From the NCBI GenBank assembly GCA_965243105.1, contig CBDEUC010000003.1, positions 2,088,370 to 2,152,369 on the forward strand: DNA of 64,000 nucleotides, read 5' to 3'. Made by a program: the position numbers and the translations under genes. The notes under the pieces were generated by a model. That model worked only from the letters and a program-made list of their open reading frames with translations, ran no database searches and was not told the DNA's origin. Source of the stretch: Gammaproteobacteria bacterium. Lineage in GTDB: Bacteria > Pseudomonadota > Gammaproteobacteria > Eutrophobiales > Eutrophobiaceae. The first letter of the stretch is position 1; every line of letters begins with the position of its first letter. Shown piece after piece: positions 9,780 to 45,946 of the stretch.

Positions 9780-9804
9780 CCTGGATAGTCCACGTCAATC
9801 CAGG
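9780..9804. promoter_or_regulatory. Inverted repeat CCTGGAT-N11-ATCCAGG upstream of scoAB
   Basis: 7-bp perfect inverted arms between the hydrolase stop and the scoA start. It is not followed by a T-tract, so it is more likely an operator than a terminator. Confidence 0.3.
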
Positions 9805-9854
9805 TGCCCTGTACAGCCTCGTTTTCGCGCGCTGAGCCTGGATCAGCGTCAATT

Positions 9855-10634
9855 TTATAACCCGTCTACAAAGCCCTGCATTAACTCCAGGCAGGTTTCT
9901 TGCTGGTCCCTGAAGGGAGTGTGCCTGCAGTTGCCCAGCATATGTAAATCCGAAGGGCCGCTGCATTGCGTTGCAATAGCATCCAGCTGTGCCCGGGTGG
10001 CATACTCATCCTCGTTTCCCTGCACCAGGAGCAGGGGGCAGTGCACGTCGGGAAGTATTTCCTCAATGTTCCATTCAAGCACTTCCGGGTTTGCCCAGAA
10101 GTCATACCATCCAAAAAATGCGCCATCCACATCATCATGGTAGGCCGCCAGTTTTTCGCGCAGGCCAGACTCTTTATAGGCATTGAGCACGGGTACCACG
10201 CTACTCCAGGTCTCTTTCTCTACGAAAGTATGGGGTGCCATCAGCACCATGCCCGTAGTAGTGGGCAGCTGGTTTGTTGCCGCGTAAATCAGAGCAATGG
10301 TGGCACCGTCACTGTGTCCAATCAGTACGGGTTCTTCAATTTCCATAGATACCAGCAGGGGTGCAAGCACATCGCAGGCCTCGTAGCTATGGTAGTCATT
10401 TTGCCTGGGCTCACTTAAACGGCTGGATTTGCCGTAGGATTCCCTGCTGTATAAAAAAACGTCCTGGCCGGTGCGCTCATGTAACTTTTGCGGAAAATCC
10501 TTCCAGGCAGAAACCGAACCCAGCCCTTCATGCAACAGGACCAGGGTCTTTGCCGAATTTTCTTCTCCCCGAATCCAGCGATATTCGATACTGGCATCAC
10601 CAAGACTGCATATGCCGTCTTCCTGGTTTGGCAC
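9855..10634 (-). CDS. alpha/beta-fold hydrolase
   Basis: Nucleophile elbow GHSDG and an HEGLGS-type oxyanion region. 259 aa. It is the last gene of the FAH-maiA-hydrolase operon, with a 7-bp gap to maiA. Confidence 0.78.
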   Translation of the reverse strand: MPNQEDGICSLGDASIEYRWIRGEENSAKTLVLLHEGLGSVSAWKDFPQKLHERTGQDVFLYSRESYGKSSRLSEPRQNDYHSYEACDVLAPLLVSMEIEEPVLIGHSDGATIALIYAATNQLPTTTGMVLMAPHTFVEKETWSSVVPVLNAYKESGLREKLAAYHDDVDGAFFGWYDFWANPEVLEWNIEEILPDVHCPLLLVQGNEDEYATRAQLDAIATQCSGPSDLHMLGNCRHTPFRDQQETCLELMQGFVDGL

Positions 10635-10641
10635 GGCGGCT

Positions 10642-11292
10642 TCAGGCTACCGCGTCGGGTTGCGCTTCGGGGATTGCAGCCTGGAATGCCTCGAGCTCAA
10701 GGCAGTTATTTTCTATCTCCAGCAGTGTCGGGAAATCCTCGAGCGGAACGTCAAAACGGTGTGCGTTGTATAACTGCGGAACCAGGCAGATATCGGCGAT
10801 ACTGACTGAATCGCCCATGCAATAGGGGCCTTTCCAGGAAGAAGCGCCGAGAGTTTTTTCCAGCGCATTAAAACCCAGTACTATCCAGTGTACGTACCAC
10901 GCATCTTTTTTACTGTCGTCTACTTTCAATTCATGCTTGAGATACTTGAGGACCCTCAGGTTATCAAGCGGATGAATATCACAGGCTATGCTGAGCGCAA
11001 GCTGCCTGGTCATGGCACGTTGCTCCGCGTCACCAGCTATTAATGGAACCTGGGGATAGCGCTCATCGAGGTATTCCATGATGGCCAGTGACTGGCTTAA
11101 GGACACATCACCATCAACAAGGGTTGGTACAAGACCCTGGGGGTTTATGGCTTTATATTCATCCTTGTGCTGTTCGCCCCCGTCTTTGAGCATGTGAACA
11201 GCAACAGTTTCATATTCCAGCCCTTTCAGGTTTAATGCAATCCGCACCCTGTAGGCCGCAGATGAGCGCCAGTAGCTGTAGAGTTTGATCAT
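10642..11292 (-). CDS. maiA: maleylacetoacetate isomerase (zeta-class GST)
   Basis: MIKLYSYWRSSAAYRVRIALNLKG… has the characteristic SSxxYRVRIAL zeta-GST N-terminus. 216 aa. It overlaps the FAH stop by 4 nt. Confidence 0.9.
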   Translation of the reverse strand: MIKLYSYWRSSAAYRVRIALNLKGLEYETVAVHMLKDGGEQHKDEYKAINPQGLVPTLVDGDVSLSQSLAIMEYLDERYPQVPLIAGDAEQRAMTRQLALSIACDIHPLDNLRVLKYLKHELKVDDSKKDAWYVHWIVLGFNALEKTLGASSWKGPYCMGDSVSIADICLVPQLYNAHRFDVPLEDFPTLLEIENNCLELEAFQAAIPEAQPDAVA

Positions 11293-12281
11293 TCCGCAGG
11301 AGTGTACTGTTTAACTTTCTGATCGATCTTGCCGAAAATGGACTCACCATTTTTATCAAGCATCTCTATTTCAATGCGGTCACCAAACTGCATGAAAGGT
11401 GTTGAAGGCTTGCCGTCGGCAATGGTTTCAAGACAGCGAATTTCTGCCAGGCACGAGGAGCCATCCTTGCTGCCAACATTGGCAATAGTACCGGAGCCGA
11501 TGACTGTTCCAGCCATGAGAGGCCTTGATTTTGCGGCGTGGTTAATGAGCTGGGGAAAATCAAACACCATGTCGACACCGGCATTGGGTGTGCCTACCTT
11601 TTCCCCGTTCAGGGTGCTGTGCAGGGGCAGGTGCACGCGTTTACCATCCCAGGCATCACCAAGTTCGTCGGGTGTGATCGCCACCGGTGTAAAAGAAGTG
11701 TGGGGCTTGGACTGGTAAAAACCAAACTGCTTTGCAAGCTCTGCCGGGATGAGGTTTCTCAGTGAGACATCATTGACGAGCGCAATAAGCTTGATGTGCT
11801 TGCCGGCATTGTCTACCGACACGCCAGCGGGGACATCATCAGTAAAGACGACAACTTCCGATTCAAAATCAATTCCCCAGGCCTCGTCCTGAACCGGGAT
11901 ATCATCATGGGGACCCAGGAAAACATCGGATGCACCCATGTACATCAGGGGATCTGTCCAGAATGATTCCGGAAGCTCTGCGCCCCTGGCCTTTCGCACC
12001 AGTTCCACATGGGTGACATAGGCACTGCCATCTGCCCAGTGGTAAGAGCGGGGCAGGGGAGCTGCAAGTGTGCTGGTATCAAGATCAAAGCTGTCCTCTG
12101 CCGTACCTTCCTGCAGCTGATCAAACACCGCTTCAAGCTGCGGCGCTTTTTCACTCCACTCGTCCATGGCTGCCTGCATCGTGTGCGCTATTGCCGGCAC
12201 TTTTACAGCCCTTGTCATATCACGGTTAACCACGATAAGCGTGCCGTCACGGCCGCCTTCTTTGAGACTCGCTAGTTTCAC
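11289..12281 (-). CDS. fumarylacetoacetate hydrolase (FAH)-family enzyme, probable fumarylacetoacetase of the homogentisate pathway
   Basis: 330-aa FAH-fold protein (…GSGTIANVGSKDGSSCLAEIR…). It is translationally coupled to maiA and divergent from hmgA. The short form differs from the 430-aa HmgB type, so function is assigned by context. Confidence 0.75.
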   Translation of the reverse strand: MKLASLKEGGRDGTLIVVNRDMTRAVKVPAIAHTMQAAMDEWSEKAPQLEAVFDQLQEGTAEDSFDLDTSTLAAPLPRSYHWADGSAYVTHVELVRKARGAELPESFWTDPLMYMGASDVFLGPHDDIPVQDEAWGIDFESEVVVFTDDVPAGVSVDNAGKHIKLIALVNDVSLRNLIPAELAKQFGFYQSKPHTSFTPVAITPDELGDAWDGKRVHLPLHSTLNGEKVGTPNAGVDMVFDFPQLINHAAKSRPLMAGTVIGSGTIANVGSKDGSSCLAEIRCLETIADGKPSTPFMQFGDRIEIEMLDKNGESIFGKIDQKVKQYTPAE

Positions 12282-12364
12282 TTGTTTCTCCCGCTGTAGA
12301 GCAATACCCGGACCTTACCATCATTCTAGCTCCTGGATTGAGCGAATTCCGGATTCTTGAAATT

Positions 12365-12380
12365 AGTTACATTTGTAACT
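12365..12380. promoter_or_regulatory. Palindromic operator-like site in the FAH/hmgA divergent promoter region
   Basis: AGTTACAttTGTAACT has perfect 7-bp inverted arms. Its AGTTRC half-site is related to the hpd-region palindromes. Confidence 0.55.
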
Positions 12381-12420
12381 ATACTGCTTTTATTCTATAC
12401 GTCAAGCAGAGGTTATCGAC

Positions 12421-13752
12421 ATGGCTACCGTGATGAAAACGGATAATGACGCACAAGCGGATGCTGCCGCGGAACTTGAATACCTGAATGGTTTCGGCAA
12501 TGAACATCAATCCGAAGCCCTTGAGGGTGCCTTACCGCGTGGACAATTTTCGCCACAAAAAGTCCCCTACGGGCTGTATGCGGAGAAATTCTCTGGTACA
12601 GCCTTTACCGCACCAAGGGCAAGCAATTTTCGCAACTGGTTTTATCGAATCCGGCCGTCCGTTGTGCAGGGTGATTTTGAGCGCATGGATAATGGCCTTA
12701 TCAGGAGCGGTCCAATCACCGAGATCGAAACACCGCCAAACCAGCTGCGCTGGGATCCCTTTCCTGTTCCAGAGACGTCCACGGATTTTATCGAGGGTTT
12801 AACTACGATTGCAGCCAACGGTAACGTGGGTGTGACCGGGATCGGTATCCACATGTACCTGGCTAACAGCAGCATGGAGAAACGTTTCTTTTATAACAGT
12901 GACGGTGAGTTACTTATCGTACCGCAACAGGGGACATTTCGAGCCCATACTGAATGCGGTGTACTGGATGTTCGACCGGGCGAGATATGCGTGATTCCAC
13001 GGGGTATCAAGTTCCGTGTTGTATTACCGGATGGGCCGAGTCGTGGGTATGTGTGTGAGAACTATGGAGCACAGTTCCAGCTTCCGGAACGTGGCCCGGT
13101 GGGTTCAGACGGTTATGCTAACGACCGGGATTTCCTTGCTCCCGTTGCAAGCTATGAAGACCGGGAAGGCGAATTTGAGCTGGTAAACAAGTTTATGGGT
13201 AACCTGTTTCGCTGTGATATCGGTCATTCACCGCTCGATGTCGTGGCCTGGGTCGGCACCGCGGTTCCCTACAAGTATGATCTTTCACTGTTTAATACCA
13301 TGAACACGGTGAGTTACGATCACCCTGATCCATCCATCTTCACGGTACTTTCATCCCAGCTTGATTCACCGGGCGTGGCTAACGCGGATTTTGTTATTTT
13401 CCCGGCGCGATGGATGGTGGCCGAGGACACGTTTCGCCCACCCTGGTATCACCGTAACCTGATGAGTGAATTCATGGGTTTGATCCATGGTATGTACGAT
13501 GCCAAGCCCGAGGGCTTTGTGCCAGGCGGTGCAAGTTTACACAACAGCATGTCAGCCCATGGGCCTGATGTTGATGCCTTTGAGGGGGCGTCAAATGCTG
13601 AGCTTAAACCACATCGATACGACAATACCCTGGCTTTCATGTTTGAATCGCGCTTTGTTATCCAGCCAACAAGGTATGCACTTGAGTGTGAGCAGCGACA
13701 GGCCAACTACGTACACTGCTGGCAGGGCCTCAACAAGCATTTCGGTAAGTAA
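12421..13752 (+). CDS. hmgA: homogentisate 1,2-dioxygenase
   Basis: 443-aa protein matching HGO across its length (…[46 protein letters not shown]…, …[21 protein letters not shown]…). Confidence 0.93.
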
Positions 13753-14260: not shown

Positions 14261-15982
14261 CTACCCACGCCCTGCATCGAGCAGGTTATTTAACTCCTCG
14301 CTGTGGAACCGTGCGCGTTTTCCCGTGGGTTGCAGCTCTTCTTCGTAAAAGAAAGCGGGTAGCTCGTCATCTTTCTCGGTAAACCCGGCAGCCTTGTTAA
14401 ACTCAGTTTCAAGCTCAAGGGTTTTGCGGCCGAGTTTCATAAAGAAAGAACTGTCAAGGTCAGTGCCATGGGCATCGTTGATGGCATTGGCAACCAGTTC
14501 AAGCTCCGCGGTCGTGACACTGCGTCCAAATAAACACAGGCCAAGGGAATCGGTCGCTGCGAATCCAATTTGCGTATCAAGGCTGGCTTCAAGCACCTCC
14601 TTTGCACCTTTGCCGGTCGCATCAAAACGAGGCAGGTTACCCGCGGTGTGATCCGCACCCTGTGCAGAAAGCATCATGGTCACGCCGGTGACTTCGACAA
14701 CACGTGGATCGTATGCACTGATAGCCTGCTTCTTGATAACCGGTACACGTTCAACGCCATAGTGTTCACCTACACGTGCTGTGCCCTGCGCCCAGAGTTT
14801 TCCGTCCTCACTTCCCTTGCGAATTTCTTCCAGCACGCTGATGATAAAATCCAGGTCACCAAACTTGCCGACGCCGGCTTCCATCAGTACGCCAATCATG
14901 GCACCGGTTTCAATGGTGTCAATTCCCAGGTCGTTGGCGATGTAATTGATATGGGCAAGATCGTCAGGATCGGATAATCCGCAATTGGTACCCATGAGAC
15001 CGATGGTTTCATACTCGACTGGTGACACGACTTCGTTACCATCCTTGTCGGCGTAAATATTACTGCACTGGATCAGGCAGCCAGGCATACAGGCATGGGA
15101 AGGATCGCCGCCACGAGCGATGTTCTGCTCGCGGATGAAATCACCACCCATTTTCATGGTCTCCTTATCTGTATCAACCAGCCGACCGTTACTGAAATTA
15201 TTCACCGGCAGGCCTCCGATATGATTCATATAGTCAGCCATCATGGCCGTCCCCAGTTTTCGATAACTGTCCACCATGCTATCGGTCTTTATTTTGCCGG
15301 CATATTCCTTGATCGCGCCGATCACTTTCTTGCGCTCGTGTAGCTCCGGCATCTTGTGCAGTTCCATGACAATTGCCTTCACCCTTTTACTACCCATCAC
15401 CGCCCCGATTCCTCCCCGGGCTGCGAGACGTGAGGGTCGCAGGTCAGTATCACTGATAGCGATACCTGCCAGGAGTCCCTGGTATTCTCCTACGGGGCCG
15501 CACAGGGCAATACTGGTTTTCTTACCGTACTTTTCATGCAGCTGGGCCGCTGTTTCAAAATTCCCCTTGCCCATGTAGGGCCTGGCATCGTCAAAATTTA
15601 TATCGCCTTCTTTTGATATGTGAATAATCACCCACTCATCAGCGACGCCATAGAGATTCAGTCCCGAGATATGTAACTGGCCCATGGCAACACCCAGCGT
15701 GCCTCCCGCATTGGCTTCCTTGATACCACCTGTCAGTGGACTCTTGCAGCCGAAACTGGTGCGGTTGGCATTGGAAAAGTTGGTGCCTGCAAAGGGGCCG
15801 GCTGAAATAATCAAGGGGTTGTCAGCGGACAGGGGATCCACCTTTGCAATATCGTTCTCACAAAGGGTCTTTGCGATAAGATAACGACCGGCAAAGGCGA
15901 CTTCTTCGCCACTGATTTCCTTCTTGTCGATTTCCTTTTTATCCAGGTCTATGTGCAGGTATGAGCGCGAGACATTTGTCAT
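14261..15982 (-). CDS. aldehyde:ferredoxin oxidoreductase (AOR) family, tungsten/molybdopterin-dependent
   Basis: 573-aa protein. It matches Pyrococcus-type AOR motifs: DPLSADNPLIISAGPFAGT…KSPLTGG, AARGGIGAVMGSKRVKAIV, C-x(3)-C in MPGCLIQC, and C-terminal DSLGLCLF. Confidence 0.85.
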   Translation of the reverse strand: MTNVSRSYLHIDLDKKEIDKKEISGEEVAFAGRYLIAKTLCENDIAKVDPLSADNPLIISAGPFAGTNFSNANRTSFGCKSPLTGGIKEANAGGTLGVAMGQLHISGLNLYGVADEWVIIHISKEGDINFDDARPYMGKGNFETAAQLHEKYGKKTSIALCGPVGEYQGLLAGIAISDTDLRPSRLAARGGIGAVMGSKRVKAIVMELHKMPELHERKKVIGAIKEYAGKIKTDSMVDSYRKLGTAMMADYMNHIGGLPVNNFSNGRLVDTDKETMKMGGDFIREQNIARGGDPSHACMPGCLIQCSNIYADKDGNEVVSPVEYETIGLMGTNCGLSDPDDLAHINYIANDLGIDTIETGAMIGVLMEAGVGKFGDLDFIISVLEEIRKGSEDGKLWAQGTARVGEHYGVERVPVIKKQAISAYDPRVVEVTGVTMMLSAQGADHTAGNLPRFDATGKGAKEVLEASLDTQIGFAATDSLGLCLFGRSVTTAELELVANAINDAHGTDLDSSFFMKLGRKTLELETEFNKAAGFTEKDDELPAFFYEEELQPTGKRARFHSEELNNLLDAGRG

Positions 15983-24442: not shown

Positions 24443-24802
24443 ATGCCGGAGAATGCAAAACTGAAACGCAGCGCAAAAGGAGAGCGCCCTTATTTCTTTG
24501 ATGATCCTGCTGTTGATAAATTACTGGCCATGCTGATGGGGCTCGCAGGCGAAGTCTCGGTGATGCGCGATCGCATTGATACCATTGAACGCGTCGCCAC
24601 GGAGAAAAAACTTTTGTCCGTCGAGGACATCGAGGCCTATGAGGCGAGCGAGGATGTCCTGAAGGAACGGGCAGAGAGACGCGAAATATTCCTTGGAGAA
24701 ATTACCCGTATCATCAGCGCTGAGCTTGAAGGCCTTGAGGACGAAAGTGAAGCGTACGATGAGGCTATTAAGCTCGTAGAGGAAACTCGAGAGAACAAAT
24801 AA
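24443..24802 (+). CDS. hypothetical small acidic protein
   Basis: 119-aa ORF that starts 10 bp after the methyltransferase stop, which suggests translational coupling. It ends at the bidirectional terminator. No recognisable family. Confidence 0.5.
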   Translation: MPENAKLKRSAKGERPYFFDDPAVDKLLAMLMGLAGEVSVMRDRIDTIERVATEKKLLSVEDIEAYEASEDVLKERAERREIFLGEITRIISAELEGLEDESEAYDEAIKLVEETRENK

Positions 24803-25023: not shown

Positions 25024-25385
25024 TGGTGGAGGCGGCGGGAGTCGAACCCGCGTCCGCAAGTACTCTGCCTTTGGTTCTACATGCTTAGCCGACTCTATTA
25101 ATTTAACTGGCTGCTACCCGAACGGCAGGGAAAACAATCAGCGAGTTCGTAAAGTTTTAACGAATCATTCCCGAACAAAAGTCATCGCGAGCTTATGTGA
25201 GTCGACGCCTGGAACCGGGCGCATAAGCACACACCGGGCAGACGGCACCCTACTGGGTATTAAGCAGCGAGTGCGTAGTTGTCGTCGTTGGCAACTATAT
25301 AAAGTGCAGCTGGTTTAACGAGGTAATCTGCACCTCGGCATGCCCCTCGGGTTTCGCTACCCACGTCGAAGCCAAGTGCGCCCCC
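25024..25385 (-). ncRNA. ssrA: tmRNA (SsrA), tag peptide ANDDNYALAA
   Basis: Minus-strand 5' GGGGGCGCACUUGGCUUCGACGUGGGUAGCGAAACCCGAGGGGCAUGCCGAGG… and 3' …GGACGCGGGUUCGACUCCCGCCGCCUCCACCA. The tag reading frame is GCCAACGACGACAACUACGCACUCGCUGCUUAA. Length is about 362 nt. A terminator hairpin AAAGCCACttttGTGGCTTTT follows. Confidence 0.92.
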
Positions 25386-25509: not shown

Positions 25510-26337
25510 TCAGGACTGCGGAGGAACAACGACGAGAATATCGTGATCCATGTGATTCAGGAGCTTGTCGACGATGTTGCCAAAAATACGGTTTGCCAGT
25601 GTGCTGCGAGTAGAGAGTCCCACAACAACGACATCAGCATTGATTTTCTCAGCGATCTCGGTAATAACCTCTTCCGGGTCACCAACCGATGCATGCACTT
25701 TTTCCGTGTCAATGTTCAGTCGCTTTGCTATGTCGGTGACATGCTGAAATTCATCCTGTGACGAGTAGGAATACACCGCGTGTAACTCGCAGTTTTCGTA
25801 GGCACTTGAAGCCGCTGTGCCAAAATCGATGATGGTGTCCATGAGCTTCTGGTACTCCTCGTCCTCGCGCCGGGTATCCACGGCCATCAATACGTTTTGA
25901 GGCTGGTCTGGACGATCTGTTGAAACCAGCAGCACTGAACACTGGGCTGAACTCATTAACGCCGTATCAGAGGAAGTCATCAGCAGGCGGCGCGCCGTGG
26001 AGCGACGATGTGTCGACTTGACGATGATATCGCTTTTCTCACGCACAGCTGCAGAGCCCAGTGAGCCGCGCCAGTCATTACTCCAGTCAAGCTCTCCCTC
26101 GATCTCGATGCCTTCATCCCTCACACCCTGCACAATTTGATCCAACCAGGGCTGGTACCTTGCACGTTCCACGCGTTCCAGTGCCTCGGCGTCGTGTGAA
26201 GACAGCGTTGGCGAGATACACAGATAGGCGTGGATCCTGGCGCCGGTAACGCGAGCAATTCCCATGGCACGTTGCAGTGCAATCTGCTTGTCAGTAGCCG
26301 GGTCGATGACGGTGAAAACGGTGTTGATCTCGGGCAT
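25510..26337 (-). CDS. universal stress protein with tandem UspA domains (UspE-like)
   Basis: 275-aa protein with two USP domains (…VVVGLSTRSTLANRIFGNIVDKLLNHMDHDILVV…). Confidence 0.8.
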   Translation of the reverse strand: MPEINTVFTVIDPATDKQIALQRAMGIARVTGARIHAYLCISPTLSSHDAEALERVERARYQPWLDQIVQGVRDEGIEIEGELDWSNDWRGSLGSAAVREKSDIIVKSTHRRSTARRLLMTSSDTALMSSAQCSVLLVSTDRPDQPQNVLMAVDTRREDEEYQKLMDTIIDFGTAASSAYENCELHAVYSYSSQDEFQHVTDIAKRLNIDTEKVHASVGDPEEVITEIAEKINADVVVVGLSTRSTLANRIFGNIVDKLLNHMDHDILVVVPPQS

Positions 26338-26467: not shown

Positions 26468-26944
26468 TCAGCCCCGCTTCATAATGCGTTGTTTTTGCCT
26501 CTGCCAGTCCCTGTCCTTCAGGCTGTCCCGCTTGTCGTGAGCCTGTTTGCCCCTCGCGATACCGATTTCGACCTTGGCCTTACCTCGTTTCCAGTACATC
26601 GCCGTGACCACCAGGGTAAATCCCTTTCGTTCAACGGCACCGGTCAGGCGGTCAATCTCTTTCTTGTGTAGCAGTAATTTTCGACTCCGCCTCGGGTCCG
26701 GCGTGATATGGGTAGATGCCGTGGGAAGAGGTGTAATCAGGGTGCTTTGCAGGAAAATCTCTCCGTTCTTCAGGTGCACATAGTTATCCCGAATCTGGAC
26801 TTTACCCGCGCGCAGGCTTTTAACTTCCCACCCTTCGAGAACGATGCCTGCTTCCAGCCGATCTTCAATAAAGTAGTCATGTCTCGCCTTCTTGTTCAGA
26901 ACGATCGTGTTGGAACCCTGCTTTTGTTTTTTATCTGCTGCCAT
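26468..26944 (-). CDS. smpB: SsrA-binding protein
   Basis: [48 protein letters not shown]… is canonical SmpB. 158 aa. Confidence 0.93.
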
Positions 26945-27050: not shown

Positions 27051-29465
27051 TTAGCGCATCTGGCTTTGCTGAATCGCCATGCTGGCCTGGTTTCTCAGTG
27101 TTTTGAAGAAACCAAGCGCATCCATGGAGATGTTCGTCGATGCATCATCCGTATCGGCGTAAATGACGCCGATACAGCGGTTTTTCAAAAATATCGGGTA
27201 CAGCACAACGGTGTGGGGCGCGGTCAGCTTCCTGAGCCAGTAGGGAATGCGATCGCGGTATTCGCTGGAATTACTGTCCAGCACGATAAAGTCCCGGTTC
27301 CGCGTCACCGCCACGCTGACAATGTCATCCGATGATTCTATTCGCCCTCGAAATTTGCCAGCGATCTCATCGATTTGCTTGCCCAGCCCGAACCTGCCGA
27401 CAACCTGGTTATTGCGCCTGTCATAGATACAGAAGAGCACGCGGGTGAAGCCCATACCGGTATAGATATTTTCCAGGATCATGGCGAGCACATCGTTGAG
27501 CTTGAATTCACCGAGCATGACCTCGGTGATCTCCGCGATACCTCTTACCAGCGCATCCTTGTCGCCCACGCTGGGCGCCTGCGCCGTGGTCGTGCCCTGG
27601 CTTGCCTGGACCACCGCGGTTTCATCCTGTCCTGCATGGGCGGTTTCCCCGGTGGCTGGCATGGGCACCTGGGTAATGGTTGCATCTGCATCGGGAAAGA
27701 TTTCCACGTCACTGATGTCTATGTTCAGCGCCTTGCTGAATTCCTTCATTTCCTTTTTTGAGGATTTAACCAGGCTCCTGATATCTTCCTTCTTGATACC
27801 GATGGATTTTCCATACCTCTCCGTCAGTACTTCTATCGCCTCGTCGTTATCTTCCCTGCCATTCATGCCCAGTTCACAAAGCTCGTTTGAAAAGCAGGCG
27901 AGGTGGGAAATGCGCGTATCGAGGTTTTTTGCCTCGCCAACGGGACCTTCAGGCAGGCGCTTCATACTGTTTACGATGACATCAGGTAATTGCCACTCCC
28001 TCGCGATAGCCATGCCGAGGTCATCGTAGGAGACACCGAGGACTGCCAGCGCGGCCTGTGCCTCTTCCATGCCCTTGTTATTTACCAGTCCCTTTATCTC
28101 GCCGTATTCCTCCGGGAAATAGTAAATAGCCAGCTGTTTGCCGAGCTTGTGAAACATGGCGGCAACAAAAGACGTTTCGACATCATCGTTATCAATGTCG
28201 CCCATGAGCTCAGCCTGTTCACGGGATATGATCCCACTCATCAGGGCACCGCACGCAGCCCCTTTTAATTCTGTTGCCTGCTTATTGTTCTGCAGGTGTT
28301 CAAACAGGATGATGCTGAGCGCCGCTGCCCGCACCTGCTCAAAGCCGAGAATAATCACGGCACGGGAAATAGTCGTTATTTCTCCACCGAATTGACCGTA
28401 AAAGGACGCATTAACAAGACGCAGCAGCTTGGTAGTCAGTGCATAGTCCTTGAGTATGATGTTGGCGAGCTCTGAGGCTGAGGAGTTCGTGTCGTGGGAT
28501 GAACGACGGGTTATCTGCGTAATATTGGTAGATATTGCGGGAAAATCCTGCTTGCGCTGCATGCGCCTGAGTAGAAAATCAACCGTGCCGAGGCCGGCAC
28601 TACCACCCTCATCAACAGCGATGCCGGGGTTCTCGGGCTTTGCATAGCTGTCCAGTTCTGCTTTCATTGTCACCGCGGATTCAAAACGCTGCGAGGTGTC
28701 TTTTTGCAGGGCGCCCATGACTATTTCATCCAGCTTCTTTTCAATAGATTTTTCCCGGCTCGATGGTGGCAATATGTTTTCGTTGGTTATCTTGAACATC
28801 ACTGCCATGCTGTTATCCGCGCTGAAGACCTGGTGAGCGGTTAACATTTCATAAAGAATCAGGCCAATGGCAAAGATATCAACGGAAGGTCCAAGCTCCC
28901 CGTTGGAAATTTGTTCCGGCGCCATGTAGTTGACCGTGCCTATTACATCACTGGTTCTCGATTCCGTATCAAGCATGATGGAGATGCCAAAATCCATGAT
29001 ATGCGGCACGTTCTTTGAATCGATCATGATATTGGCCGGGTTGAGATCCCTGTGCACGATACCGTTGCGATGGGCGTAACCCATCGCATCAAGCAGCTGG
29101 CGCGTGATATCCACGGCTTCGAGAGCTTTCAATCGCCCGTTACGTTTCAGCATGTCCCTGAGGGATTCGCCCTCGCACAGCTGGTAAACAAGGTAGGGAT
29201 TATTTTTCTCGACCCCGATCTCGTAGATTGGAATGATATTGAGATGTTCAAGCTTGCTGACATTGCGCGCTTCCTGGATCAGCTGGCTGTGATCGCTGCG
29301 ATGCTTGTCCAGGGTCTTGATTGCCACCTGCCTGTCCAGTTGCGGATCGTGGGCCAGGTAGACCACGCCCTGCGATCCTTTTCCAAGACAGCTCAGAACT
29401 TCAAATCGACCGATAGATTCGGGTAATTGTGCTGCCTGCAGGCTCGCTGATAACGTGGCGCTCAT
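27051..29465 (-). CDS. multidomain signalling protein: Hanks-type Ser/Thr protein kinase + HDOD domain + C-terminal GAF domain
   Basis: The N-terminus has kinase subdomains: GKGSQGVVYLA…VAIK, HRDLNPANIM, DFG, APE. The middle has an HDOD-like region (…ITQITRRSSHDTNSSASELANIILKDYALTTKLLRLVNASFYG…). The C-terminus is a GAF-like domain. 804 aa. Confidence 0.8.
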   Translation of the reverse strand: MSATLSASLQAAQLPESIGRFEVLSCLGKGSQGVVYLAHDPQLDRQVAIKTLDKHRSDHSQLIQEARNVSKLEHLNIIPIYEIGVEKNNPYLVYQLCEGESLRDMLKRNGRLKALEAVDITRQLLDAMGYAHRNGIVHRDLNPANIMIDSKNVPHIMDFGISIMLDTESRTSDVIGTVNYMAPEQISNGELGPSVDIFAIGLILYEMLTAHQVFSADNSMAVMFKITNENILPPSSREKSIEKKLDEIVMGALQKDTSQRFESAVTMKAELDSYAKPENPGIAVDEGGSAGLGTVDFLLRRMQRKQDFPAISTNITQITRRSSHDTNSSASELANIILKDYALTTKLLRLVNASFYGQFGGEITTISRAVIILGFEQVRAAALSIILFEHLQNNKQATELKGAACGALMSGIISREQAELMGDIDNDDVETSFVAAMFHKLGKQLAIYYFPEEYGEIKGLVNNKGMEEAQAALAVLGVSYDDLGMAIAREWQLPDVIVNSMKRLPEGPVGEAKNLDTRISHLACFSNELCELGMNGREDNDEAIEVLTERYGKSIGIKKEDIRSLVKSSKKEMKEFSKALNIDISDVEIFPDADATITQVPMPATGETAHAGQDETAVVQASQGTTTAQAPSVGDKDALVRGIAEITEVMLGEFKLNDVLAMILENIYTGMGFTRVLFCIYDRRNNQVVGRFGLGKQIDEIAGKFRGRIESSDDIVSVAVTRNRDFIVLDSNSSEYRDRIPYWLRKLTAPHTVVLYPIFLKNRCIGVIYADTDDASTNISMDALGFFKTLRNQASMAIQQSQMR

Positions 29466-29660
29466 GGATTTTTTAACTCTGTAATGCTTTCCCGGTATTC
29501 GTTTTGGCAGGTAGATTTACGCATGCTAAATCACCGTAATATCTATAGAATATAGCGACCGTTCCGGCCCGATCTTAAGTACGAAAAAGGCCGTGAAAAC
29601 AGGCTTCAGGAGTATGGGGGAAGCCGTAAATAACTAAAAAATAAAGAAACAGGAATATTT

Positions 29661-31061
29661 ATGGCTACTAACAGAACGTCAATTCATGGTCAGTGGTCTT
29701 CCCGCTGGGCATTTATCCTGGCTGCCACCGGCTCGGCCGTCGGTCTCGGCAATATCTGGCGATTTCCTTACCTCACCGGTGAAAACGGCGGGGGAATATT
29801 TGTCCTGTTGTACCTAGTGTGCGTATTGCTCGTTGGCATACCTATCCTCATCGCGGAAATCATGCTTGGTCGGCGCGGCAGGCAAAGCCCGATCAATACC
29901 ATGAAAGCACTGGCATCGGATGAAAACCGCAGCCAGGGTTGGCAGGTCATCGGCTGGATTGGAATGTTGACCGGGTTTCTTATCATTTCGTTTTACAGCG
30001 TGATCGCAGGCTGGACGCTCGCTTACATCGTCAGGACTGCCAGCGGGTCATTTGTGGGTGCTGAAGCCTCGGTGGTAACGAGTACCTTTAACGAACTTAT
30101 CAGTGACCCGGAAAGACTTCTCGCCTGGCACACGATTTTCATGATGATGGTTATCATTGTTGTCTCTCGAGGTGTGAAAAGCGGTCTTGAGACCGCGGTC
30201 AAGTACCTCATGCCGGCACTCTTTATTTTGCTCCTTGTAATGGTGGGCTACGCCATGACGACAGAGAAATTCATGGAAGGAATGCGCTACCTCTTTGTGC
30301 CTGATTTTGACGTGATCAGGCAGAAAATACAGGATGGCCAGTTTTTTGGTGACGTTGTGCTTAACGCCCTGGGCCAGGCGTTTTTCAGTCTTAGTCTTGG
30401 CATGGGAGCGATCATGGTCTACGGCTCTTACCTGTCATCACAGTCATCCATTCCACGAACGGCAGTCATCATTGCCCTGGCCGACACCAGCGTGGCACTG
30501 CTGGCCGGTATTGCCATCTTCCCGGTAGTTTTCACATTCGGCATGGAGCCTTCAAGCGGCCCGGGCCTGATATTCGTCACCCTGACCGTGGCATTTGGAC
30601 AAATGGATGGTGGCGCATTTTTTGGCACCCTGTTTTTTTTCCTGTTGATGTTTGCCGCGTGGACTTCGGGAATTTCCATTCTTGAACCCGCGGTGGCGTG
30701 GCTGGTGGAGTATCGCAACATGACGCGAGTACGTGCTGCAGCTTTTGCCGGTTTTGGCGCCTGGTTACTGGGTGTGGGCACGGTGTTATCGTTTAACCAC
30801 TGGGCCTTTAGTTTTACCTTTGCCGGGCAGGAAAAAACATCAGGGCTTTTTGATGTGTTCGATACCCTGACGGCAAATGTGCTGCTACCGGTGGGAGGAT
30901 TGTTGATTGCTATTTTCGCCGCGTGGATCCTGTCCCGGGATGCCGCTGCCGAAGAGCTGGGTATAAGTGACAGGGTTTTTGCCGCCTGGCAGTTTGCAGC
31001 ACGATTTATCGCGCCGGCCGGCGTCATCCTGATTTTCCTGAATGCAATTGGCGTAGTTTAA
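29661..31061 (+). CDS. sodium-dependent transporter, NSS (SNF) family
   Basis: WSSRWAFILAATGSAVGLGNIWRFPYLTGENGGG is the NSS signature. 466 aa, about 12 TM segments. Confidence 0.88.
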   Translation: MATNRTSIHGQWSSRWAFILAATGSAVGLGNIWRFPYLTGENGGGIFVLLYLVCVLLVGIPILIAEIMLGRRGRQSPINTMKALASDENRSQGWQVIGWIGMLTGFLIISFYSVIAGWTLAYIVRTASGSFVGAEASVVTSTFNELISDPERLLAWHTIFMMMVIIVVSRGVKSGLETAVKYLMPALFILLLVMVGYAMTTEKFMEGMRYLFVPDFDVIRQKIQDGQFFGDVVLNALGQAFFSLSLGMGAIMVYGSYLSSQSSIPRTAVIIALADTSVALLAGIAIFPVVFTFGMEPSSGPGLIFVTLTVAFGQMDGGAFFGTLFFFLLMFAAWTSGISILEPAVAWLVEYRNMTRVRAAAFAGFGAWLLGVGTVLSFNHWAFSFTFAGQEKTSGLFDVFDTLTANVLLPVGGLLIAIFAAWILSRDAAAEELGISDRVFAAWQFAARFIAPAGVILIFLNAIGVV

Positions 31062-31089: not shown

Positions 31090-31527
31090 GTGGAGTCCAT
31101 TACAAAGTCAGTGGTGGTGCCGTATACCGCGGAGCAGATGTATGAACTCGTCAATAATGTAAGTGCTTATCCCGAATTTTTACCCTGGTGCAGTGCTTCA
31201 CAGGTTCATGAGCAAAATGAACACTACATGAAGGCCTCGGTTTCACTTGCCTCCGGTGCGGTGAAGCAGACCTTTACCACCGCAAATACCTTGACGCCGG
31301 GAGAAAGAATAGAGGTGGCACTGGTGTCAGGCCCCTTTAAGCAGCTCAATGGATACTGGTCTTTTGAACAAGCCGGTGACGACATGAGCAAGATCGATTT
31401 CAGGATGAGCTACGAATATAAAAACCGGATCATCAAGCTTGCGCTCAACAAAATATTTACTCGCATCGGTGATACGCTCGTCAGCAGCTTCGTAGAGCGT
31501 GCACACAAGCTGTATGGACAGAAGTAA
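31090..31527 (+). CDS. ratA: SRPBCC-fold ribosome-association toxin RatA (YfjG) family
   Basis: 145-aa protein with a GTG start and YPEFLPWC, a motif conserved in RatA/YfjG-family proteins. It is followed by an overlapping rnfH, the conserved ratA-rnfH pairing near smpB. Confidence 0.8.
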   Translation: MESITKSVVVPYTAEQMYELVNNVSAYPEFLPWCSASQVHEQNEHYMKASVSLASGAVKQTFTTANTLTPGERIEVALVSGPFKQLNGYWSFEQAGDDMSKIDFRMSYEYKNRIIKLALNKIFTRIGDTLVSSFVERAHKLYGQK

Positions 31528-31861
31528 GCCGGTGATAACGATCGAAGTTGCCTACGTGAGAGAGGGTTGTTCCTACCTGCTGCCTGTCACACTTTCCCAA
31601 GCCGAGACGGTAAGGGAAGTGATAGACAGGTCGGGTGTCCTGCAGCAATGCCCGGAAATTGACCTGCTGACAAACAAGGTCGGAATTCATGGAAAGGTAT
31701 GTGCACTGGATGACATGGTTGTCGATGGAAATCGAATAGAAATTTATCGACCCCTGCGGGCAGACCCAAAGGACAGCAGGCGCAGGCGAGCAGAGAAACA
31801 AAAAAAATCTGCCCGGCCTCCAGGTCCCGCAGGGGAAGCATCCACGAAGCTTCGAAACTGA
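31514..31861 (+). CDS. rnfH: RnfH-family ubiquitin-like protein (YfjF/UPF0125)
   Basis: MDRSKPVITIEVAYVREG…IEIYRPLRADPKD is the RnfH fold. The start is taken at ATG 31514, which overlaps the ratA 3' end. Confidence 0.75.
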   Translation: MDRSKPVITIEVAYVREGCSYLLPVTLSQAETVREVIDRSGVLQQCPEIDLLTNKVGIHGKVCALDDMVVDGNRIEIYRPLRADPKDSRRRRAEKQKKSARPPGPAGEASTKLRN

Positions 31862-31877: not shown

Positions 31878-32849
31878 ATGCCACGATTTATTCTTATCCC
31901 TTTAATCCTGCTGGTTTTATGTGGCCTGTCACTGGGATACTCCCTGGCCAGCGGTAGTATTGATATCAGCCTCGGGGAACTTGTTTCAATCCTCCTTGGA
32001 GACAGGGACAGTCACAATGCCCGCGTTGTGATGGAACTCAGGTTACCGCGGGTTATCTCGGGCTTCGTGGTTGGTGGCCTGCTTGCCCTTGCCGGGGCAC
32101 TGATGCAGGTATTGCTAAAGAACCCACTTGCGGAGCCCTACGTACTGGGCGTATCCGGTGGCGCGTCTGTTTTTGCACTTGTTACCATGATGCTGGGTGT
32201 TGCCGGTGCGTGGTTGAATATCTCTGCCGCAGTTGGTGCACTGTTCTCGATTTTCCTTGTGTTTGGCCTGGCCCAGTCTGCGCGTAACTGGAACCCGCTC
32301 AGGGTGTTGTTAACGGGTGTAGTCGTTGCAGCCGGGTGGGGGGCGCTGGTGAGTTTTCTATTGGCCACGAGTCGTGCATCACAGTTGCATGGCATGTTGT
32401 TCTGGCTAATGGGTGACCTGGAATATGCCCGCAGCTATCACCTCGCTGGTGTGACCCTGCTGGCAGGTACACTCATTAGCATGGCAATGGCGAGGGGACT
32501 AAATTTACTTGCCATGGGTGAGGACCAGGCCTTGACCCTGGGAGTCAATGTAAGCCAGCTACGCTACCTGGTTTATTTCCTCGCCTCGCTGCTCACTGCC
32601 GTGGCAGTAACCCAGGCCGGGAACATCGGCTTTGTTGGTTTAATCGTGCCGCACCTGGTTCGCCTGCTGATCGGTAGTGACCACCGGATTCTTTTACCCG
32701 TTGCAGTGCTGGCAGGCGGTTGCCTGCTTGTCGTTGCTGATGGGCTTGCGAGAACCATAATTGCACCTGAGCAACTTCCAGTCGGGGTATTAACGGCCAT
32801 GATAGGCGTACCGCTTTTCCTGGTTCTTCTACACAGGATGACGAGATGA
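31878..32849 (+). CDS. ABC transporter permease, FecCD/BtuC family
   Basis: 323-aa protein with the FecCD signature region (…RLPRVISGFVVGGLLALAGALMQVLLKNPLAEPYVLGVSGGAS…). Confidence 0.85.
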   Translation: MPRFILIPLILLVLCGLSLGYSLASGSIDISLGELVSILLGDRDSHNARVVMELRLPRVISGFVVGGLLALAGALMQVLLKNPLAEPYVLGVSGGASVFALVTMMLGVAGAWLNISAAVGALFSIFLVFGLAQSARNWNPLRVLLTGVVVAAGWGALVSFLLATSRASQLHGMLFWLMGDLEYARSYHLAGVTLLAGTLISMAMARGLNLLAMGEDQALTLGVNVSQLRYLVYFLASLLTAVAVTQAGNIGFVGLIVPHLVRLLIGSDHRILLPVAVLAGGCLLVVADGLARTIIAPEQLPVGVLTAMIGVPLFLVLLHRMTR

Positions 32850-33625
32850 ACGCCAGCCCGGAGCTACTTCAAACCCGCTCATTGCGCGTGGATATTGCCG
32901 GCCGCACAATTTGCGATCAGTTGAATTTCAAGCTGAAGCGGGGAGAGTGCTGGGGAATACTGGGTGGTAATGGCATCGGCAAGACAACCCTGCTTAGAAC
33001 CCTGGCCGGCTTACGTTCCGACTGGCACGGGGAAATCCTGGTCGAAGGACAGGATCTGCGTCGATGGAAGCGTAAACCGCTGGCCCAACGCCTGGGCATG
33101 CTATTCCAGGACAGCATGGATGTCTTTCCTGTCACGGTGCTGGAGACCGTATTATCGGGGCGTTATCCATACATCCCGGCTTTTGCCATGGAAGGAAAGG
33201 AAGACAGGAAAATTGCCATGCAGGCACTTTCGGCAGTGGAACTTGACCAGATGCAGCACAGGCAGGTTGACTCCCTGTCAGGTGGAGAAAGAAGACGACT
33301 GGCTATAGCAACGCTCATCGTGCAGGACCCGGATATCTGGCTACTTGATGAGCCGACCAACCATCTTGATTTACATCACCAGGTCACCCTGCTTGAGCAG
33401 GTGTTGCAAAGGGTGAGTGAACACAATGGTGCGGTGATGATGGTGATGCACGACATCAACCTGCTGACTCGTTTTTGTAGCCACGCGATGCTGATGGTTA
33501 ATCAGGAAAATATTATATGCGGTGACCTTGATACGGTTTTAACCACGGAGAACCTGAGTGCCCTGTACAGGCACCCGGTAAAGAGAATAACGCAGGGGAA
33601 TGATGCGTTTTTTTACCCGGCCTGA
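32846..33625 (+). CDS. ABC transporter ATP-binding protein, FecE/BtuD-like
   Basis: Walker A GGNGIGKTT, signature LSGGERRR, Walker B IWLLDEPT. It overlaps the permease stop by 4 nt. Confidence 0.88.
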   Translation: MNASPELLQTRSLRVDIAGRTICDQLNFKLKRGECWGILGGNGIGKTTLLRTLAGLRSDWHGEILVEGQDLRRWKRKPLAQRLGMLFQDSMDVFPVTVLETVLSGRYPYIPAFAMEGKEDRKIAMQALSAVELDQMQHRQVDSLSGGERRRLAIATLIVQDPDIWLLDEPTNHLDLHHQVTLLEQVLQRVSEHNGAVMMVMHDINLLTRFCSHAMLMVNQENIICGDLDTVLTTENLSALYRHPVKRITQGNDAFFYPA

Positions 33626-44018: not shown

Positions 44019-44576
44019 ATGGAACAGGTACAAGAGCTGAGTTCGTCGGAGTCCCTTCAACATGTCCTTGCCAGGTGCCATTCGCAACTGGACGAATTAT
44101 TCCTGCAACACCAGGAATCCCTGCTGCAGGGAAAACTCGAGGAAGCCCTGTTTTTGCTTGAAATATACTGGTCCTGTCATTCTCTTCATTCCGAGTTTGA
44201 AGATGAGGAAATATTTCCCGTTTATCGGGAATTACCCCGCCCGGGTCGCTGGGATGCAACTTTATATGATAAGGAACATCAAAAAATTAACGATCTTTAC
44301 GAGACACTGCGAAGCTCAATTACTACACTGTTAGATAGGGCCTTGAAAGGCTCTGAATTGAGACGCGGTATCATCCAGTTGATGGACAGGGAAAAGAGTT
44401 TTAAAGGCCTTTGTGAACATCACCAGGAAAGAGAGGAGCAGTCACTGCTTGTGGAGCTCGATACCCAGGCTGACAGTGACTGGAAGATGAATACGATAGG
44501 AAAATTTTCAGATCTGTGGGAAGCGCATTTTGCAGAAAGTGTCCGTTTGATTAATCGTGGAGCAGGTGGTGAATAA
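44019..44576 (+). CDS. hypothetical protein, hemerythrin-like (HHE cation-binding motif pattern)
   Basis: 185-aa protein with spaced H…HxxE and H…HxxxE pairs: H21/H31/E33, H54/H57/E61, and a C-terminal HHQEREE. It is the first gene of a five-gene coupled operon. Confidence 0.4.
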   Translation: MEQVQELSSSESLQHVLARCHSQLDELFLQHQESLLQGKLEEALFLLEIYWSCHSLHSEFEDEEIFPVYRELPRPGRWDATLYDKEHQKINDLYETLRSSITTLLDRALKGSELRRGIIQLMDREKSFKGLCEHHQEREEQSLLVELDTQADSDWKMNTIGKFSDLWEAHFAESVRLINRGAGGE

Positions 44577-45343
44577 TGCTTTATAAAGTAGAAGCGAAAC
44601 TCTCGTTGAGTAGTTACAAATATGCTTTGAAACTGTTCGGACTAATTTCCATTCTCCTGTTTTCCAATGCACAGGCCATGGAAAAAGACTGGAGTGAGGA
44701 CGCCTGTTCCCTTGATTCATCCGAACAGTTCAATCACCAGGATTTTGTTCCGGATTCCTGGTTTGCCTCCTCGGCTGCCAGCGAGGCGGAACTGCAATCC
44801 GAAGTGAGTAGCATTGAGTCCGAGGACGGGGTTTACAGCCCTCGACTCGTGCCCACGCTAATCAGCATGGGTGCCCTGGCCCAGGAGAACAGTAATCACA
44901 CCCAGGCTGCGCAAAACTATGAGCGAGCACTATATATCGTACGTGCCAATGATGGCCTTTACAGCACGCAGCAGCTACCCATCCTGGACAGGATGATAGA
45001 GAGTAATACGGCCAGCGGAAACTGGAAAAGTGTCGCCAATTCCTACGACATGATGAACTGGCTTTACAAGCGAAATTTCAGCGAAACCGATCCGCGTCAG
45101 CTGAAAAGTCTCAAGCGCATCAGGCGCTGGTACATGGAAGCTTACAACAAGGATATTGATCGTACACTGGAAGTGCTGTTTCGAAGTGCAGAGGAAACCT
45201 ACGACAGGGGTATTAAGATCATGTGGGAGTGTACCAATGGTGATTCTGCAAAGTCTCTTTGCCTGTGGCATAAGTCGTGCTGCGCAAGCGGAGATGATGG
45301 CCAGGATGTTTGCCCGCTGGATGTGAAGCTAGAGCGCAGGTAA
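44576..45343 (+). CDS. hypothetical secreted protein, Cys-rich C-terminus
   Basis: 255-aa protein with an N-terminal hydrophobic signal-like segment (…LFGLISILLFSNAQA) and a C-terminal CTNGDSAKSLCLWHKSCCASGDDGQDVCP. It overlaps the upstream stop by 1 nt. Confidence 0.45.
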   Translation: MLYKVEAKLSLSSYKYALKLFGLISILLFSNAQAMEKDWSEDACSLDSSEQFNHQDFVPDSWFASSAASEAELQSEVSSIESEDGVYSPRLVPTLISMGALAQENSNHTQAAQNYERALYIVRANDGLYSTQQLPILDRMIESNTASGNWKSVANSYDMMNWLYKRNFSETDPRQLKSLKRIRRWYMEAYNKDIDRTLEVLFRSAEETYDRGIKIMWECTNGDSAKSLCLWHKSCCASGDDGQDVCPLDVKLERR

Positions 45344-45370
45344 TGAGTAGCAATATTTAATACCGAAGCA

Positions 45371-45946
45371 ATGACGATAAAAGCAAAACTTGTCGTAGTG
45401 ATTTTTCTTGGCTTGTACTTGTCTTCTACTCACGCCGAAGAGGAATCTTTTGTGGATGCCCAGTGGAAGGTTTACCAGGCAACCATGCACTACGCCTCTG
45501 AATTTTCCTTTTACAACTGCGAGGCCATGGAAAGCAAGTTGAGAAAGCTACTGGTCCTGCTTGGGGCGCGCTACGACGTGAGGGTTGAGACAGAGTGTTT
45601 GAATAACATGGTTCGAGGAAGAGTCTCACCCCTGGGGCAGCGATTCCATTTTGTCAGACTGGCCTTTGCATTACCTGTTCCTGCAGACAAGGAAGACCTG
45701 TCACGGGAAGTGTTTCCAGCACGTTGGCAAGACGCTCGAATCAGTGGAACCCAGGCCAGGTATCTGAATGGTGGAGACTGTGAATTGGTCAGGACGTTTA
45801 TTGATCAAATATTGCCTTTTCTTAAGGTGCGAAACAAGAGTGGTGCCATGGAATGTTTTGCCGTGCAACGCACCGCATCAAGGCTCAGGTCGCGAATGCA
45901 TGCACTGATACCGCTTAATGAAGAAGATCGACAGGTAATAAAGTGA
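45371..45946 (+). CDS. hypothetical secreted protein, paralog A of a tandem pair with four conserved Cys
   Basis: 191-aa protein with signal peptide MTIKAKLVVVIFLGLYLSSTHA. It shares AQWKVYQ, LRKLLVLLGARYDVRVE, FALPVP, EVFPARWQDARISG and GGDCELV blocks with the next gene. Confidence 0.5.
   Translation: MTIKAKLVVVIFLGLYLSSTHAEEESFVDAQWKVYQATMHYASEFSFYNCEAMESKLRKLLVLLGARYDVRVETECLNNMVRGRVSPLGQRFHFVRLAFALPVPADKEDLSREVFPARWQDARISGTQARYLNGGDCELVRTFIDQILPFLKVRNKSGAMECFAVQRTASRLRSRMHALIPLNEEDRQVIK

Follow-up and report, generated by a model that had tools for sequence, protein, structure and literature searches.

Organization of the Kinase–HDOD–GAF Protein

The window considered here, a 64,000-nucleotide stretch of contig CBDEUC010000003.1 from a Gammaproteobacteria bacterium (assembly GCA_965243105.1), contains a gene on the minus strand that encodes a Hanks-type Ser/Thr kinase domain, an HDOD domain, and a GAF domain in a single polypeptide. 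This gene lies between smpB and a divergently oriented gene for a Na+-coupled transporter of the NSS family (Table 1). The 804-residue product is 100% identical to an entry in the public protein collection (P0001), encoded on a 2.76-Mb contig, and the base composition of the gene (GC 0.49-0.54) is like that of its flanks. The identities of the three domains, which had been proposed from the letters of the DNA without database searches (hereafter the sequence-only reading), are confirmed by the analyses described below.

Table 1. Features of the kinase–HDOD–GAF locus, with positions counted along the window.
Feature	Position	Strand	Basis or remarks
Pkinase–HDOD–GAF gene	27051-29465	-	Single uninterrupted open reading frame (ORF), 804 aa; stop codon 27051-27053
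Hanks-type Ser/Thr kinase domain	28632-29411	-	Residues 19-278; Pfam, PknB alignment, motif conservation
HDOD domain with conserved leader helix	27960-28580	-	Residues 296-502; Pfam HDOD, 3hc1 alignment
Helical extension after HDOD	27690-27959	-	Residues 503-592; moderately conserved
Variable low-complexity linker	27567-27689	-	Residues 593-633; predicted disordered
C-terminal GAF domain	27054-27566	-	Residues 634-804; signatures R691-F-G-x-G695 and Y769-A-D771
smpB	26468-26944	-	Pfam SmpB, E 1e-58; 106 bp downstream of kinase gene, same strand
tmRNA gene	25024-25385	-	Tag ANDDNYALAA
Kinase/NSS divergent intergenic region	29466-29660		195 bp; promoter-like match 29578-29549, minus strand
MhsT-like Na+-coupled NSS (SNF) transporter gene	29661-31061	+	Pfam SNF, E 4.9e-49; MhsT 4us3, E 1.7e-93; divergent from kinase gene
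ratA-type (Polyketide_cyc) and rnfH genes	31090-31861	+	Pfam; other edge of conserved backbone

Conservation along the protein was assessed with a family alignment of 35 full-length members (41-95% identity), which is the basis for all conserved-column counts given below. Among members less than 50% identical overall, HDOD is the most conserved domain (55% identity, compared with 48% in the kinase and 41% in GAF), and 31% of the HDOD columns are at least 90% identical. This level of conservation suggests that the HDOD domain is not a passive spacer. Between the HDOD and GAF domains, the helical extension forms helices at residues 515-534, 541-555, and 559-580 in the full-length AlphaFold2 model, which has a predicted template modeling score (pTM) of 0.52. 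The linker that follows has a predicted local distance difference test (pLDDT) value below 50 over residues 593-634 of this model, is only 9-27% identical to the linkers of relatives, and varies in length. No signal-peptide-like N-terminus is seen in the protein. The sole strongly hydrophobic 19-residue segment (mean Kyte-Doolittle 1.9) starts at residue 370, and because this segment sits inside the HDOD core, the protein is read as cytoplasmic.

Kinase Domain

The N-terminal domain matches Pfam Pkinase (PF00069) over residues 21-263 with an E-value of 7.9e-57 and a score of 193.1 bits, compared with a cut-off of 31.7. The nearest solved kinase is Mycobacterium tuberculosis PknB (1mru, E 1.4e-47), followed by Staphylococcus aureus Stk1, StkP, PknA, and PknE. 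The intact motifs described in the sequence-only reading can all be found in the translation and show little or no variation among the 35 members: VAIK (K50), HRDLNPANIM (H138, R139, D140, N145), DFG (158-160), and APE (182-184). The domain also contains the Gly-rich loop GKGSQG (residues 28-33), the alphaC Glu (E65), the subdomain IX Asp (D196), and the subdomain XI Arg (R260). Invariant positions are G33, K50, E65, H138, N145, D158-F159-G160, D196, and R260, and G28, G30, R139, D140, and E184 are kept in at least 90% of the members. The catalytic Lys and Asp residues, the loss of which had been named earlier as a refuting condition, are retained in the window protein (K50, D140, D158). The invariance of K50, E65, N145, and D158 and the near-invariance of D140 indicate purifying selection on catalysis in the branch to which the window protein belongs. 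Based on its intact Hanks motifs, the protein is apparently catalytically competent for Ser/Thr phosphotransfer.

The activation-loop side chains S169 and T171 align with the PknB phosphosites T171 and T173, and a Ser or Thr is found at position 169 in 24 of the 35 members and at position 171 in 23. As judged from its motifs, the window protein is an RD kinase with the hallmarks of activation through loop phosphorylation. The kinase domain is modeled with pLDDT values mostly between 80 and 95. Matches to NCBIfam models are confined to this domain and all fall under the family cut-offs; the PknB_PASTA equivalog (NF033483) reaches 271 bits (cut-off 450) over residues 19-280 only. The protein is not a PASTA kinase, as it has no transmembrane helix or PASTA repeats and its C-terminus is instead HDOD–GAF.

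A strict test requiring a canonical catalytic loop and DFG was passed by 114 of the 117 closest long relatives and failed by 22 of the 90 more distant long members. Most of these 22 failures have degenerate motifs, such as HGD, HGR, HGN, or HRS at the HRD position, DLG or NFG at the DFG position, or a lost Gly-rich loop. One of them (P0199) is a cyclase rather than a kinase, and a few fail narrowly. The family seems to have given rise to pseudokinases on multiple occasions, and the pattern of motifs suggests that catalysis is kept in the window protein's own branch and is not indispensable family-wide. Apart from a syntenic member discussed below (P0012), motif-degenerate members include P0143, P0161, P0162, P0243, and P0262, among others.

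HDOD Domain

The middle domain matches Pfam HDOD (PF08668) over residues 309-502 (E 2.9e-35; 122 bits, cut-off 22.9), as do all 35 members of the alignment. This domain is homologous to solved HDOD proteins, namely 3hc1 (E 1.6e-12), 1vqr (E 1.5e-6), and, more weakly, 9qzk and 3mem, and the region is predicted to be all-helical in the full-length model. F388, H390, and G442 are invariant in the family, and E389 and H439 are nearly so.

The structure 3HC1 is that of an HDOD protein with a di-iron site, and SadB is an HDOD adaptor that functions without a ligand in its HDOD pocket (PMC12075610). Two of the six metal ligands of 3HC1 were mapped onto the family, and both are absent. The first ligand His (motif LWAHSL) aligns to G406, in a column that contains Gly, Thr, Ser, or Ala in nearly all members and in which His is not among the six commonest residues. 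The column that aligns with the HD-dyad Asp is variable (K/R/L/T/Q/E) and has K440 in the window protein. The HD metal-ligand set (H...HD...D, PF01966) is consequently lacking at the two mapped positions, and a weak PF01966 match is found in only 1 of the 35 members. The loss of both mapped positions makes it unlikely that this HDOD domain has a canonical metal-dependent hydrolase site, in agreement with the earlier description of the domain as metal-independent.

GAF Domain

The assignment of the C-terminal domain draws on relatives and on structure as well as on the window protein itself. When the window protein is searched alone, the Pfam GAF match (residues 656-798, E 1.6e-3, 19.4 bits) is under the curated cut-off of 22.4 bits. 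Among the 35 aligned relatives, 32 match PF01590 (E < 0.01; best 1.8e-9) and 21 match GAF_2 (PF13185; best 9.5e-11). A profile of the C-terminal 173 residues finds 3oov (E 1.1e-8), 4g3v (E 2.7e-5), and 3eea (E 2.6e-3) among sequences in the Protein Data Bank (PDB). The AlphaFold2 model of residues 632-804 has a mean pLDDT of 89.8 and a pTM of 0.85, and all 50 matches listed in a Foldseek comparison of this model with the PDB are GAF domains (query-normalized template modeling scores 0.64-0.81). The top match among those listed is the GAF domain of PtsP (3ci6, E 1.4e-9), and the Lcd1-cAMP and phosphodiesterase (PDE) GAF domains are also found. The relatives, the sequence profile, and the fold together confirm that this is a GAF domain, as had been proposed. 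Within it, R691, Y769, and D771 are invariant and D714 and W743 are nearly invariant, making these side chains candidates for lining a putative ligand pocket.

Distribution of the Family and of the HDOD–GAF Module

Among the matches listed in a word-indexed search are at least 120 relatives, nearly all full-length, with identity down to 41%; more than 100 of those listed are full-length at 41-95% identity. Most of the listed relatives carry precomputed Pkinase and HDOD matches, and many carry a GAF match as well. The database names of these proteins are limited to "protein kinase", "HDOD domain-containing protein", or "PknD". Residues 290-804 were also used in an exhaustive HMMER search, which returned 850 representatives of 50%-identity clusters at E ≤ 1e-30. 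Considering these numbers, the earlier description of the architecture as unusual was overstated. In a species-level genome scan, full-length members were found in gammaproteobacterial metagenome-assembled genomes, Thiotrichaceae, Dechloromonas agitata DSM 13637, Azonexus, Sideroxydans, Sulfurirhabdus, Desulfatiglans, and Desulfobacterales, so the family reaches the Gamma- and Betaproteobacteria and the Desulfobacterota.

The best 150 of the 850 representatives include 77 proteins of 760-860 residues, 7 that are longer than 860, 52 of 480-600, 10 of 600-760, and 4 that are shorter than 480. Pfam was run on ten sampled representatives. The five longest (851-986 residues) all have an N-terminal Pkinase domain, three of intermediate length contain kinase fragments only, and P0125 is an HDOD–GAF protein without a further domain. 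In P0199 (748 residues), an adenylate/guanylate cyclase catalytic domain (Guanylate_cyc) is located where the kinase would be, suggesting that the module is a general regulatory input. Furthermore, kinase-less HDOD–GAF genes are found in Desulfobacteraceae and Nitrospirota genomes (L035-L037). HDOD–GAF behaves as a transferable regulatory module that is also found alone or fused to a cyclase, and the kinase–HDOD–GAF form is its commonest form and is not rare.

No paper coupling HDOD with a protein kinase (Ser/Thr kinase, Pkinase) was found in the literature, and searches on Hanks-type kinases together with GAF returned nothing relevant. The kinase–HDOD–GAF architecture is common in environmental Proteobacteria and represents an apparently unstudied family, not an isolated curiosity.

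Genomic Context and Synteny

The gene order in the window is tmRNA(-) – Usp(-) – smpB(-) – kinase(-) – NSS(+) – ratA(+) – rnfH(+) – FecCD/ABC(+) – bamE(-) – fur(+) – recN(-) – nadK – hrcA – grpE – dnaK – dnaJ, where Usp denotes a universal stress protein. Pfam or ARAGORN confirmed the tmRNA-to-FecCD genes. Beginning with the ABC ATPase, the names of the remaining genes come from the translations, and those of fur, bamE, and recN are backed by tblastn matches in related loci. The NSS transporter gene that was earlier said to adjoin the kinase gene is borne out by its SNF match (Table 1). Promoter and terminator consensus scans of the intergenic regions gave background-level results, and the only Rfam element found was the tmRNA.

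The same backbone is recognizable in Escherichia coli K-12, which has the order grpE – nadK – recN – bamE – rnfH(yfjF) – ratA beside smpB; there, ratA and smpB are adjacent and divergent, without a kinase gene between them. Across the gammaproteobacterial loci that were compared (L001, L003-L006, L038, L040, L081-L084, L088), the recovered order is recN–fur–bamE–rnfH–ratA–(NSS)–kinase–smpB, with kinase identities from 57% down to 40%. The preservation of this order in orthologues as little as 40% identical indicates that the placement between ratA and smpB is old, and the synteny of the kinase gene is old and vertically kept. The sequence-only reading had described the gene as inserted between smpB and ratA relative to a Pseudomonas-type backbone. 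The position holds with E. coli, rather than Pseudomonas, as the reference; the recent event implied by "inserted" does not, given a base composition matching that of the flanks and the depth to which the order is kept.

The beta- and deltaproteobacterial members are found in unrelated contexts (RmuC, a protein of more than 1,100 residues, alaS/recX, and a MASE1-CHASE-PAS protein), and these loci contain no recurring partner, PP2C phosphatase, or FHA protein. A search for a cognate phosphatase or FHA protein, suggested earlier as a check, likewise found neither PP2C nor FHA, nor a GGDEF domain, in the 21 of 65 window ORFs scanned with Pfam, a survey that is not exhaustive; the window covers only 64 kb of a ~2.8-Mb genome. 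Motif expressions for PP2C, GGDEF, EAL, and HD (FHA excluded) gave nothing convincing over the 65 ORFs. REC-GGDEF proteins, which occur within 10 kb in 13 of 27 clustered loci, were considered as partners and rejected because these occurrences cluster phylogenetically (Dechloromonas/Azonexus), the genomes concerned are rich in GGDEF proteins, and the window gene has none nearby.

Several other features of the backbone vary among lineages. In L081-L083, which represent one metagenomic gammaproteobacterial lineage, tandem Pkinase–HDOD–GAF paralogues (8001-10412, 10429-12825) are located between the NSS gene and smpB. The second paralogue shares ~37% identity with the window protein, the motifs of both paralogues are canonical, and insertion sequence (IS) elements (HTH_Tnp_1 + rve) lie nearby. 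A gene for a tandem-Usp universal stress protein (25510-26337, minus strand) sits between ssrA and smpB in the window, and L088 likewise has a Usp gene after smpB. The corresponding stretch of E. coli K-12, ~560 bp from smpB to prophage CP4-57, is free of annotated protein genes. Genes for a FecCD permease and an apparent ABC ATPase, the latter named from its translation, occupy 31878-33625 (plus strand) between rnfH and bamE. L088 contains the same pair (FecCD + ABC_tran), whereas in E. coli K-12 no gene separates yfjF (rnfH) from bamE, indicating another lineage-specific insertion into the backbone.

Proposed Mechanism and Alternatives

The window protein is probably a soluble, cytoplasmic, PknB-like Hanks Ser/Thr kinase of the RD class whose activity is set by the C-terminal HDOD–GAF module. 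First, the GAF domain would bind a small intracellular ligand and/or dimerize. Next, the HDOD domain would relay the state of the GAF domain or dock a partner protein. Dimerization of the kinase and trans-autophosphorylation of its activation loop, with S169 and T171 as candidate sites, would change as a result. Finally, the active kinase would phosphorylate its substrates. Ligand gating, dimer-based activation, and every downstream target are elements that we infer. The small-molecule-gated kinase suggested in the sequence-only reading is thus a plausible but putative function.

A number of observations weigh against this mechanism. The protein P0012 (L088, 7001-9430) is 57% identical to the window protein and is encoded at the same locus, which keeps the order recN…ratA–NSS, kinase–smpB–Usp, and yet it has HGN in place of HRD and a degenerate Gly-rich loop. 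Many distant members are also pseudokinase-like. Together, P0012 and these members suggest that part of the function of the family needs no catalysis. The GAF fold matches share just 10-20% identity with the window domain, so the fold does not name a ligand, and GAF domains can serve purely for dimerization. In the full-length model (pTM 0.52), residues 307-393, which form the first half of the HDOD domain, and the geometry between domains are of low confidence, leaving the relay step without structural backing. Lastly, the examined loci share no conserved partner gene beyond lineage-specific synteny, and the analysis revealed neither a ligand or substrate nor a phosphatase or FHA partner.

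In a more specific and tentative proposal, to which a low probability is assigned, the HDOD–GAF module would act as a hitherto unrecognized cytoplasmic receptor, linking a metabolite or second messenger to kinases, cyclases, or partner proteins. The signal might be a hydrophobic amino acid brought in by the adjacent MhsT-like transporter; alternatively, the GAF or HDOD domain may bind a cyclic (di)nucleotide. If this proposal is true, it would provide a directly ligand-gated proteobacterial Ser/Thr kinase and a defined signaling role for the enigmatic HDOD domain.

Alternatively, the conserved role may reside in HDOD–GAF, acting as an adaptor or scaffold in the manner of SadB, with the kinase mainly a docking or allosteric element and phosphotransfer secondary or dispensable. 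This alternative is rather unlikely, although it accounts for several of the observations described above: HDOD shows the highest conservation of the three domains, HDOD–GAF proteins often occur alone (the 480-600-residue class noted above), SadB itself is an HDOD adaptor (PMC12075610), and both P0012 and most of the aligned failures among the 22 distant members have degenerate catalytic motifs. It is countered by the canonical catalytic loop and DFG in the window protein and in nearly all of its closest long relatives, and by the retention of the catalytic side chains throughout the alignment, down to 41% identity.

The adjacent transporter gene raises the possibility that the kinase senses, via its GAF domain, the solute of the MhsT-like transporter (probably hydrophobic amino acids) or regulates the transporter, with both genes served by the shared 195-bp control region. 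Such a pairing is compatible with the mechanism proposed here but is unlikely in its own right. The two genes are divergent neighbors in the window and in L001, L003, L040, L081-L084, and L088, where kinase identity is 50-57% and NSS identity is 60-70%. The transporter is closest to MhsT, and the top structural match of the GAF domain is PtsP, which senses glutamine and 2-oxoglutarate in E. coli. The adjacency is, however, confined to this closer set (at least 50% kinase identity); the NSS gene is missing from the same site in L004, L005, L006, and L038, where ratA abuts the kinase gene. None of the beta- or deltaproteobacterial loci has an NSS gene next to the kinase gene (in L031, one lies ~8 kb away), and adjacency within a vertically inherited block is weak functional evidence. 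The window also encodes, elsewhere, a second NSS transporter that is 44% identical to the first (60657-62045, minus strand), next to a Na+:alanine symporter gene (59293-60645, plus strand).

A link to trans-translation, in which the kinase would be co-transcribed with smpB and would regulate, or be co-regulated with, the SmpB–tmRNA/RatA neighborhood, is quite improbable. In every gammaproteobacterial locus whose sequence continues beyond the kinase gene, smpB is the next gene downstream and lies on the same strand, with spacers of ~60-190 bp in most, and the 106-bp spacer in the window contains no terminator-like site, an absence that a simple consensus scan cannot prove. On the other hand, smpB was not found in the available sequence (up to 10 kb on each side of the kinase gene) in beta- and deltaproteobacterial members, L086, or L087, and E. 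coli keeps the backbone order without the kinase, so synteny alone explains the adjacency.

An anti-phage defense kinase of the PD-T4-6 or MADS mad6 type is very improbable and was rejected: although PADLOC gives matches to PD-T4-6 (E down to 2.9e-77) and mad6 (E 1.7e-68) and NCBIfam gives sub-threshold matches to MAD6 and PglW, the listed PADLOC matches lie within about residues 8-394 and thus take in the kinase domain and, at the most, the segment just C-terminal to it, the NCBIfam scores fall well short of their cut-offs (MAD6, 151 versus 460), and the gene belongs to a deeply syntenic housekeeping block (recN, fur, bamE, ratA, smpB), whose other annotated genes have housekeeping or transport functions, rather than to a variable defense island. 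It is equally hard to credit that the HDOD domain is an active HD-type metal-dependent phosphohydrolase (e.g., a nucleotide hydrolase), making the protein a bifunctional kinase/hydrolase, since the homology to the di-iron protein 3HC1 and the conservation of H390 and H439 are outweighed by the absence of the two mapped metal ligands.

Significance

HDOD is a widespread bacterial signaling domain whose biochemical role is largely obscure, and far less is understood about the Hanks kinases of Proteobacteria than about their counterparts in Actinobacteria and Firmicutes. The existence of kinase-fused, stand-alone, cyclase-fused, and pseudokinase variants makes this family a tractable system for probing the role of HDOD and the cytoplasmic gating of kinases. 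The main value of the family is as an entry point to HDOD function. For the genome that contains the window, the outcome is the solid annotation of a regulatory kinase rather than a new mechanism.

Other Features of the Window

The window contains several genes unrelated to the kinase that merit mention. A gene at 50255-54760 (minus strand) encodes a 1501-residue Lhr-type large helicase (DEAD, Helicase_C, DEAD_assoc, and Lhr winged-helix), and the neighboring 511-residue ORF (48651-50186, minus strand) has no Pfam match. An aldehyde:ferredoxin oxidoreductase (AFOR_N, AFOR_C), a member of a tungsten-enzyme family, is encoded at 14261-15982 (minus strand), which is unexpected beside apparent homogentisate-pathway genes (~3320-13752, named from translations alone). 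Four consecutive small ORFs of 185-255 residues are located at 44019-46563 (plus strand), several with signal-peptide-like N-termini; the three that were scanned (44019-45946) match no Pfam family. The same is true of a 119-residue ORF beside a methyltransferase gene (24443-24802, plus strand).

Comparison with Known Systems

Similar to the PknB-type kinases (PknB, Stk1/PknB, and StkP), the window kinase has a catalytic domain with Hanks motifs, belongs to the RD class, and carries activation-loop Ser/Thr residues. In contrast to these enzymes, it lacks the transmembrane helix and the extracellular PASTA repeats and has a cytoplasmic HDOD–GAF sensor in their place.

The HDOD domain has clear sequence homology, demonstrated for 3hc1, to the HDOD proteins that have been characterized or solved, including those from Geobacter sulfurreducens (3HC1), Pseudomonas SadB, and MmoQ (3ljx, 3p3q). 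Most metal-ligand positions are lost in SadB (PMC12075610), and the same is seen in the window HDOD at the two positions that were mapped. Among the characterized or solved HDOD proteins, some carry receiver or YbaK-like domains and others consist of HDOD alone; none was found fused to a kinase.

The GAF domain shares its fold with the GAF sensors PtsP/EI-Ntr (3ci6, 3trc), the cAMP-binding Lcd1 (5w10), the PDEs, Nlh2 (4g3v), and 3oov. With identities of only 10-20%, the ligands of these sensors are not transferable to the window family, which has its own RFGxG and YAD signatures.

The closest likeness in the C-terminal part is to the stand-alone and cyclase-fused HDOD–GAF proteins (P0125, P0199, and L035-L037), which share the arrangement HDOD–extension–linker–GAF at 31-43% identity over the full module and differ in having no N-terminal kinase, a place that is taken by Guanylate_cyc in P0199. 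Finally, PD-T4-6 and the Mad6 kinases of MADS resemble the window protein in the kinase domain only. Apart from one model that runs to residue 394, their similarity does not enter the HDOD–GAF part, and the window gene differs from them in its syntenic housekeeping context.

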